This document shows, piece after piece, positions 56,256 to 56,610 of a stretch of DNA of 64,000 nt (its first letter is position 1; each line of letters starts with the position of its first letter). The DNA comes from a virus. The notes below the pieces were generated by a model that had not been told where the DNA came from, made no database searches, and was given only the letters and a program-made list of their open reading frames with translations. A program made the position numbers and the translations under genes. Location of the stretch: the IMG/VR virus record IMGVR_UViG_3300037313_000197, positions 32,001-96,000 of that record; one strand, 5' to 3'.

Positions 56256-56610
56256 TGCAAACCATTGCTTTCGCTCTTGCCAGTTCCCGGCTTGCTAGGA
56301 TATTAGAGTCCGTTACGTCTAAACGCAATCTGGCCGACTATGTTATTGGTGACTGAGTAAGCACCCATCAAACTCAGGCACCAAGTACAGAGGGTGAACA
56401 AGGGCTTAGGGACTTATTGACGTTGCCAGAATTACGGTTTCTACGAGTGACACGCATTGTCTTTAGTTTTAAACCTTGTTCACCATGAAGTTATAATGTC
56501 CGTTAACTTTTGCGAGCGCGAGGTAGGTTCCCAAGAGCATTGAGCACGGACTACACTCAATCCTACCCCACTACATACCCCCGCAAGGATATGTAATTGC
56601 ATTTATTTGC
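56256..56610 (-). ncRNA. Large (~355 nt) structured ncRNA of unknown class
   Basis: No ORF in the track; terminal helix, 11-bp GGTGAACAAGG/CCTTGTTCACC, pseudoknot GCTCTTG/CAAGAGC. Confidence 0.65.

Follow-up and report, generated by a model that had tools for sequence, protein, structure and literature searches.

A structured non-coding RNA at the head of a tRNA, tRNA-mimic and tmRNA operon in uncultured soil phages

Phage T4 makes a pair of small RNAs, called RNAC and RNAD, from its tRNA region, and their role is not known (PMC3014915). The GOLLD and ROOL RNAs lie near tRNAs in prophages, and ROOL has an average length of 581 nucleotides (PMC5737381). Here we describe an RNA, also located beside tRNAs, that is encoded on the minus strand of a 64,000-nucleotide stretch of virus DNA (positions 32,001 to 96,000 of IMG/VR record IMGVR_UViG_3300037313_000197), which is called the window below. 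The virus record from which this stretch comes is complete, has a length of 126,890 bp and carries direct terminal repeats, and the single run that contains all of the stretch is a soil metagenome. An earlier note on this DNA had proposed a novel ornate RNA of about 355 nucleotides at positions 56256 to 56610, within a tRNA operon and next to a tRNA-like element, and this placement proved correct. The RNA lies in the gap between the gene pth2 and the first tRNA-like element of the operon.

We consider it very likely that this gap encodes a genuine structured non-coding RNA, that it is the first element of an operon continuing with tRNA mimics, tRNA-Arg(CCU) and tmRNA, and that it belongs to no catalogued family. 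Judged from the alignments, the conserved unit is a core of approximately 150 nucleotides, comprising the stems H0, H1 and H2/H3 and a pseudoknot, together with a distal hairpin, H4, and the spacers accept inserts of 0 to approximately 270 nucleotides. This picture replaces the single closed fold of about 355 nucleotides that had been proposed, wherein the conserved parts are now the core at 56632-56485 and the hairpin at 56384-56346, joined by spacers of very different length. Folding of the whole 355 nucleotides is only modestly better than that of shuffled sequences (z -1.8).

Sequence searches gave one related complete phage, IMGVR_UViG_3300013105_000002 (G001; loci L002, L005 and L044), whose Pth2 protein has 78% identity to that of the window, and a fragment of a second related phage (L003). 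The parts of the gap that can be aligned between the window and G001 are the 5' 150 nucleotides (56632-56485), the 39-nucleotide hairpin H4, the first tRNA-like element and the promoters. In addition, Logan contigs from three soil runs (X2, X3 and X4) and one root RNA library (X16) were aligned to the window and provide partial variants.

The core begins with H0 (56611-56628, minus strand, as are all features of the RNA), a hairpin of five base pairs with a conserved 8-nucleotide loop at the 5' end of the transcript. Three of its five pairs are altered on both sides among the aligned sequences and pairing is retained at 100%; a third version of the stem, with the loop kept, is present in the loose end of the soil contigs X3 and X4. 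It is followed by an A/U-rich single strand of 15 nucleotides (56596-56610) that is identical in the window, L002 and L003, and then by H1 (56572-56595), a 9-bp hairpin with an invariant 6-nucleotide loop, UUGCGG. Six of the nine H1 pairs are altered on both sides, and the X16 contig carries a third version of the 3' strand while the loop is again kept. The next element (56520-56569) is an 8-bp stem, H2, stacked on a 6-bp stem, H3, with one compensatory pair in the former, three in the latter and two further one-sided changes, all of which leave the stems 100% paired. The H3 loop (56555-56545) and a bulge on the 3' side (56538-56528) are each 11 nucleotides long.

A conserved tail (56485-56519) completes the core and carries the motifs UCGCAA (56515-56510) and ACGGAC (56503-56498). 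The second of these pairs with GUCCGU of the H3 loop (56551-56546) to form a proximal pseudoknot of 6 bp, none of which varies in the three sequences. The description of the RNA as pseudoknotted is retained, with at least one such interaction. The 6-nucleotide complement of the invariant H1 loop occurs twice, at 56612-56607 and at 56515-56510. Perhaps the H1 loop pairs with the copy in the tail, as their complementarity suggests, with both sides of the putative contact being invariant.

The 5' core has 34 pairs, of which 28 are nested and six form the pseudoknot, and in the three-sequence alignment 98% of their cells are paired. Thirteen of these 34 pairs are altered on both sides, which was matched by none of 500 shuffles. 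When the partners were slid by one to three columns as a control, only 29-48% of cells were paired and no more than two compensatory pairs were seen. The distribution of identity between the window and L002 is likewise uneven: pseudoknot positions are 100% identical and unpaired core positions 84%, compared with 79% for the adjoining pth2 gene and 48% for the nested stems, wherein pairing is kept. High identity in loops and low identity in paired stems is the pattern expected for a functional RNA. The G-U pairs in H1, H2 and H3 identify the minus strand as the one that the RNA is made of. Across the element, the two phages have no open reading frame in common. The covariation and this missing frame uphold the assignment of a structured non-coding RNA to the minus strand.

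H4 (56346-56384) consists of two 6-bp segments separated by a C-U mismatch and is capped by an invariant 13-nucleotide loop (56371-56359). All 12 pairs are kept in the relative, including three compensatory pairs that account for all six substitutions, and the loop is unchanged. Folding of this hairpin is better than that of shuffled sequences in both phages (z -3.2 in the window and -2.8 in the relative). Counted together, H0, H1, H2/H3 and H4 have 40 nested pairs, 16 of which are altered on both sides. H0 to H4 thus show compensatory changes, but two helices listed in the earlier note, a terminal helix and an 11-bp long-range helix, are not conserved.

The partial variants offer another view of the constraint on this RNA. 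There are no differences from the window across 56497-56571 in the X16 contig, nor across 56497-56547, the only part compared, in the X2 contig, and the hairpin region 56345-56384 shows 0 of 40 differences in X2, X3 and X4. The X3 and X4 contigs have 5 differences among 116 positions in 56497-56612; if the 75 unchanged letters of X16 hold there as well, these five would fall in the part made up of H1 and the 15-nucleotide strand. Pieces of pth2 in the X2 and X3 contigs have between 22 of 227 and 30 of 289 differences, or approximately 10%. By this measure, the core is under tighter constraint than the neighbouring protein gene.

These numbers bear on the possibility that the RNA is only a structured spacer, wherein hairpins would only keep exonucleases away from the operon transcript at its 5' end and guide RNase P and RNase E to their sites, with the leader being degraded afterwards. 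Such a role is compatible with a hairpin, H0, at the very 5' end and with the free evolution of the 3' part and the inserts. However, simple protective hairpins have no need of invariant loops, an invariant 15-nucleotide strand or a pseudoknot, and the complete lack of differences over 75 and 40 nucleotides would not be expected where the neighbouring gene has approximately 10%. We therefore view a simple spacer as an unlikely explanation.

Two conserved promoter-like sites of the sigma-70 type are arranged in tandem within the last 60 nucleotides of pth2. The first, P1 (56676-56705; TTGACA, 18 nucleotides, TAGAGT), lies inside the 3' end of the gene and was called by a consensus scan with 10 of 12 matches. 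The second, P2 (56641-56669; TTGACA, 17 nucleotides, TAATCT), was read from the sequence; its first hexamer is perfect, but in the window it falls under the scan threshold. At the place matching P1 the relative carries TTGACC-17-TAGAGT, and its counterpart of P2 is TTGACA-17-TAGACT, both called by the scan. The second hexamer of P2 is separated from H0 by 12 nucleotides in the window and by 11 in the relative. Because the promoter positions and this distance match in both phages, transcription probably begins near 56634, which would put H0 at the 5' end of the RNA. The 5' boundary that had been placed at 56610 is thus off by approximately 24 nucleotides, with a covarying hairpin (56628-56611), which the note had missed, and the promoters located upstream of it.

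The root RNA library X16 includes a 197-nucleotide contig that runs from the 3' strand of H1 through the rest of the core and H4 to approximately 45 nucleotides beyond. This is a weak hint of expression, and carry-over of DNA could also produce it. Contigs from this library do not cover pth2 or the tRNAs, and this lack of cover was not used as evidence.

The location of the RNA directly behind its promoters invites the explanation that it is a cis-acting leader. According to this model, the core and H4 would act on the transcribing polymerase or on its factors and thereby let it pass through the long, untranslated and highly structured operon with no Rho-dependent or pause-induced termination, in a manner resembling the nut-like leaders of rrn operons, the put RNAs of phage HK022 and the EAR element of Bacillus. 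The close and nearly constant spacing from the second promoter hexamer in both phages agrees with this model. In addition, there is a single copy of the element per genome and, whether in the window, the relative or the X3/X4 contig, it always heads the same operon and precedes tRNA-Arg(CCU). Approximately 870 nucleotides of untranslated RNA follow it. Invariant loops would be well suited to contact with conserved host proteins, and tolerance of inserts between modules also suits a leader. However, the other tRNA clusters of the phage have their own promoters and no copy of the element, and boxA-like letters found in the bulge of the window are lost in the relative. Furthermore, the scan of the window gave no terminator-like site on the minus strand between the folded RNA and the tRNAs, and hence no downstream site that would need to be overridden. 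We consider a cis-acting leader less likely than not, but only slightly less probable than the release of a stable RNA that is proposed below.

The spacer between the tail and H4 differs greatly among the variants. In the window it holds a lineage-specific insert (56385-56484) made up of a 92-nucleotide hairpin domain, which the 11-bp helix closes, and an 8-nucleotide linker, and this domain folds well by itself (z -2.75). The 11-bp long-range helix exists, but it closes an insert that is specific to a lineage. The insert measures 100 nucleotides in the window and 257 in G001, and X3 and X4 carry 271 unlike letters in its place. It is missing from one X2 DNA contig and from the X16 contig, wherein the tail motif directly abuts H4. 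The insert of G001 has no fold of its own (z 0.04), and the inserts are not repeated elements, as there is no other copy in either phage genome.

Within the 257-nucleotide insert of the relative there is a partial second tail module (L002 4620-4662). Its pseudoknot strand is fused to a copy of the loop strand to form a small hairpin, which is followed by the 12-nucleotide motif that ends the first tail. This arrangement points to a local duplication. Another feature particular to some variants is a terminator-like hairpin located 4 nucleotides after H4 in the relative (L002 4848-4866). A hairpin of this kind appears to follow H4 in an X2 soil contig as well, where it is read from a loose end, and the window has no comparable hairpin there.

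The remainder of the gap (56253-56345) is variable and contains a 6-bp hairpin, then a distal complement of the H3 loop (56312-56306), and a complement of the bulge (56279-56273). The pairings listed in the earlier note, among them 56538-56532 with 56279-56273 and those of the H3 loop with its two complements (56503-56498 and 56312-56306), are all present on the minus strand of the window. Their conservation varies. The terminal helix can be drawn in the window but has no counterpart in L002. In the window, a 7-bp pseudoknot in which bulge positions 56538-56532 pair with 56279-56273 would seldom arise by chance (P 0.047), but its counterpart in G001 has only six pairs, including one G-U, and shuffled sequences give as much 48% of the time. 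This pairing is not established.

The distal complement of the H3 loop presents a more suggestive case. It forms 7 bp in the window, and L002 has a 10-bp complement of its own H3 loop in the 3' part; in both phages the strand lies directly 3' of the 6-bp hairpin. Only one base of the H3 loop is variable, being A in the window and G in L002, and the distal strand has U and C, respectively, at the opposing position. Shuffles scored for contiguous stems give P values of 0.038 (window) and 0.005 (L002), and we regard the predicted distal pairing as moderately supported. The distal and proximal pairings of the H3 loop are mutually exclusive, and the proximal one is invariant in every variant seen. 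The H3 loop thus has two alternative partners, an invariant proximal strand and a covarying distal strand, and therefore the RNA may have two conformations.

Two conformations would be expected of a conformational switch, or of a sensor like a riboswitch or T-box, wherein alternation of the H3 loop between its proximal and distal partners gates processing or expression of the downstream RNAs. The balance might depend on a ligand, on a tRNA or on how fast transcription proceeds. Both phages have the two mutually exclusive partners with the distal pairing being longer, the compact pseudoknotted core with its near-invariant unpaired bases resembles an aptamer, and a terminator-like hairpin is found after H4 in L002. 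However, there is no match to a riboswitch or T-box model, and the window lacks a terminator or a sequestered ribosome-binding site. Moreover, the distal site is located 190 to 360 nucleotides away at a distance that varies, and the support for the distal pairing depends on the test applied. These observations cause us to consider the RNA an improbable switch candidate.

Comparison with known families began with Rfam 15. At gathering thresholds, a scan of the window returns only tRNAs and tmRNA. When the limit was relaxed to E values of up to 10, searches with 2 kb of the locus, with 406 nucleotides and with the 626 nucleotides of the relative gave nothing, or two plant and animal microRNA models (E 1.2 and 8.4). 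The RNA thus matches no catalogued family and appears to be undescribed, as had been suspected. Several specific candidates were examined at the same relaxed limit. GOLLD and ROOL (RF01998 and RF03087), T-box leaders (RF00230) and Y RNA or YrlA models give no match. The window also lacks a terminator-like site on the minus strand as expected of a T-box leader, and no TROVE domain (PF05731) is encoded across the 126.9-kb genome, a search for which control genomes gave matches. A tmRNA-like tag frame starting at GCA in the tail was likewise rejected: in L002 it stops after 6 codons and in the window after 14, and in the X16 contig it continues into H4.

The proximity of tRNA-Arg(CCU) and tRNA-like RNAs raises the question of a catalytic or intron-derived RNA, such as a self-cleaving ribozyme, a divergent RNase P-like RNA or the decayed remnant of a group I intron of the kind found in bacterial tRNA-Arg(CCU) genes. 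The letters of the H3 loop and its partner resemble those of the conserved P4 helix of RNase P RNA, which is only a lead. However, there is no match to RF00010, RF00011 or any other RNase P model, to the group I intron model (RF00028), or to the HDV-like/theta, hammerhead, twister, pistol, hatchet and glmS ribozymes, even when only 406 nucleotides are searched. The P4-like strand is the loop of the H3 hairpin and does not lie between two helices, and the folded RNA has neither the specificity domain nor the P1-P3/P15 layout of bacterial RNase P RNA. As for a tRNA-borne (IC3) group I intron, the crossing helices have only six nested pairs between them and no P4-P6-type domain. In addition, no split gene or tRNA halves flank the RNA, which has the end of pth2 with its promoters upstream and a self-contained tRNA-like element downstream. 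None of these comparisons supports the suggestion that the RNA might be a ribozyme, and we judge any catalytic or intron origin to be highly improbable.

The distribution of the RNA is narrow. A covariance model built from the conserved 5' core (R1) finds one copy in the genome of the window phage and one in G001. Neither genome has a second one, and the model gives no match in 37 other loci or in two additional virus records. A blastn search in distant mode with 2 kb against 50,697 phage records gave no match, and four DNA-pattern scans of IMG/VR returned only G001 and its fragment; pattern matches at L007-L010 were rejected as chance occurrences in coding or unrelated DNA. Two pattern scans of a collection of genomes from 185,579 species were empty. 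A metagenome scan with a Pth2 alignment gave, among the matches listed, only distant Pth2 genes, and where their neighbourhoods were inspected (L011 and L049), open reading frames and not the folded RNA occupy the corresponding place. The Pth2 search also found approximately 15 closer relatives of the protein in JGI, ENA and Logan. In Microbacterium phages with a related Pth2, open reading frames lie behind the gene and the folded RNA is not there. On the basis of these searches, only one small lineage of uncultured soil phages carries the RNA.

The explanation that we favour is that the RNA is released as a stable product with a function of its own. RNase P would free the RNA by a cut near 56252, at the 5' boundary of the first tRNA-like element. 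Its invariant loops would then bind a conserved partner, which might be a host or phage protein or an RNA of the translation or tRNA machinery, and the RNA would act together with the tRNA-repair and tRNA-mimic genes nearby. We offer the release by RNase P at the first tRNA-like element, with action through the loops on a conserved partner, as a tentative proposal that stands clearly below an even chance. The statement as a whole, namely a conserved RNA that is freed in stable form and uses its invariant loops to act on a partner, falls somewhat short of even confidence.

Several points weigh against this proposal. The discrete stable product, the RNase P cut and the partner are all things that we infer, and a position directly behind promoters suits a cis-acting leader equally well. 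The pseudoknot and all of the loop contacts are invariant, and hence lie outside the reach of covariation. A complement of the H4 loop or of the 15-nucleotide strand was sought elsewhere in the window and none was found. The 3' part that would be included in the released RNA (56345-56253) cannot be aligned with that of G001 and does not fold stably by itself (z -0.1 for 56346-56253). The distal pairing of the H3 loop becomes weaker when shuffles are scored by duplex energy with bulges allowed (0.12 in the window and 0.043 in L002). Finally, the comparison rests on two independent full sequences plus fragments, which is below what statistics of R-scape grade demand.

The first tRNA-like element (56173-56252), which likely sets the 3' processing site of the RNA, has an acceptor-type stem of 6 bp and a T arm with a 7-nucleotide T loop. 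The place of the anticodon loop is taken by a 7-bp stem with a structured loop of 20 nucleotides. Its counterpart in the relative (L002 5012-5094) is 85% identical over 86 nucleotides, including a run of 37 identical nucleotides, and three pairs of the T stem are altered on both sides. With its conservation, the compensatory changes in its T stem and a structured loop in place of an anticodon loop, the element looks like a non-decoding tRNA look-alike. The acceptor stem of the second tRNA-like element (56078-56170) is 7 bp long, and the encoded A-CCA end directly abuts tRNA-Arg(CCU); the middle of this element is not conserved in the relative, and the element folds no better than shuffled sequences (z -0.6). 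Two other minus-strand tRNA calls are unusual as well. The tRNA called by Rfam at 55793-55871 has a 13-nucleotide insert in its anticodon loop, and the one called by ARAGORN at 53587-53662 has an 'anticodon' of two nucleotides.

On the minus strand, the gap is preceded, in order, by genes for an Rnl1-type RNA ligase, an HNH endonuclease, Pnkp, an uncharacterised protein and Pth2. It is followed by two tRNA-like elements, tRNA-Arg(CCU), two more tRNA-like elements, two small genes and tmRNA. The tmRNA (55126-54821) is a full phage tmRNA that is separate from the folded RNA. Its predicted tag is very short (ADYALAA), and its first 60 nucleotides have 95% identity to the tmRNA of the relative.

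Genes for Thg1, NAMPT and a phosphoribosyltransferase are also encoded near the folded RNA. They belong to a minus-strand cluster (50910-63397) that includes, in addition, the Rnl1-type RNA ligase, Pnkp (a kinase plus a HAD phosphatase), Pth2 and two HNH endonucleases. This combination of tRNA care and NAD salvage reads like a set of counter-measures against host defences that cut tRNAs or deplete NAD. In such company, the RNA could represent a functional class of its own, either a two-state pseudoknot device or an RNA that binds or processes tRNAs or their look-alikes, operating together with the tRNA-repair and counter-defence genes. We assign this idea a low probability.

Large soil phages carry whole operons of non-coding RNAs, comprising tRNAs, tRNA look-alikes, tmRNA and folded RNAs, and such operons adjoin genes for tRNA repair (Rnl1 and Pnkp), Thg1, Pth2 and NAD salvage. 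A compact conserved RNA of approximately 190 nucleotides with invariant loops, a pseudoknot and insertion points is tractable for probing, structure work and partner pull-downs. It could reveal roles of phage tRNA operons beyond the supply of codon readers. Even if it proves to be an ordinary leader, it would still be a clean example of a conserved RNA that is missing from Rfam.

Among described systems, the closest analogues that can be named by context are RNAC and RNAD of T4 and the GOLLD and ROOL RNAs. RNAC and RNAD are approximately 120-140 nucleotides long and have tRNA-like ends. Like the RNA described here, they are small non-coding RNAs from a phage tRNA region, presumably excised by tRNA-processing enzymes. 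No sequence relation is seen, though no direct comparison was made, and the folded RNA differs in not being tRNA-like, in its location at the 5' end of the operon behind promoters and in its pseudoknotted core. Antitermination RNAs, namely the nut-like leaders of rrn operons, HK022 put and Bacillus EAR, are likewise folded, lie just 3' of promoters and head long or untranslated operons, and EAR is also pseudoknotted. The folded RNA shows no sequence or model match to these leaders, and its boxA-like letters are not conserved. GOLLD is larger than ROOL, and both are widespread. They share with the folded RNA the character of orphan, multi-helix and pseudoknotted RNAs that are often found near tRNAs in phages or prophages. 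However, GOLLD and ROOL measure about 580-800 nucleotides and have many multistem junctions, whereas the conserved part of the RNA in the window is approximately 190 nucleotides long and belongs to one small lineage of soil phages.
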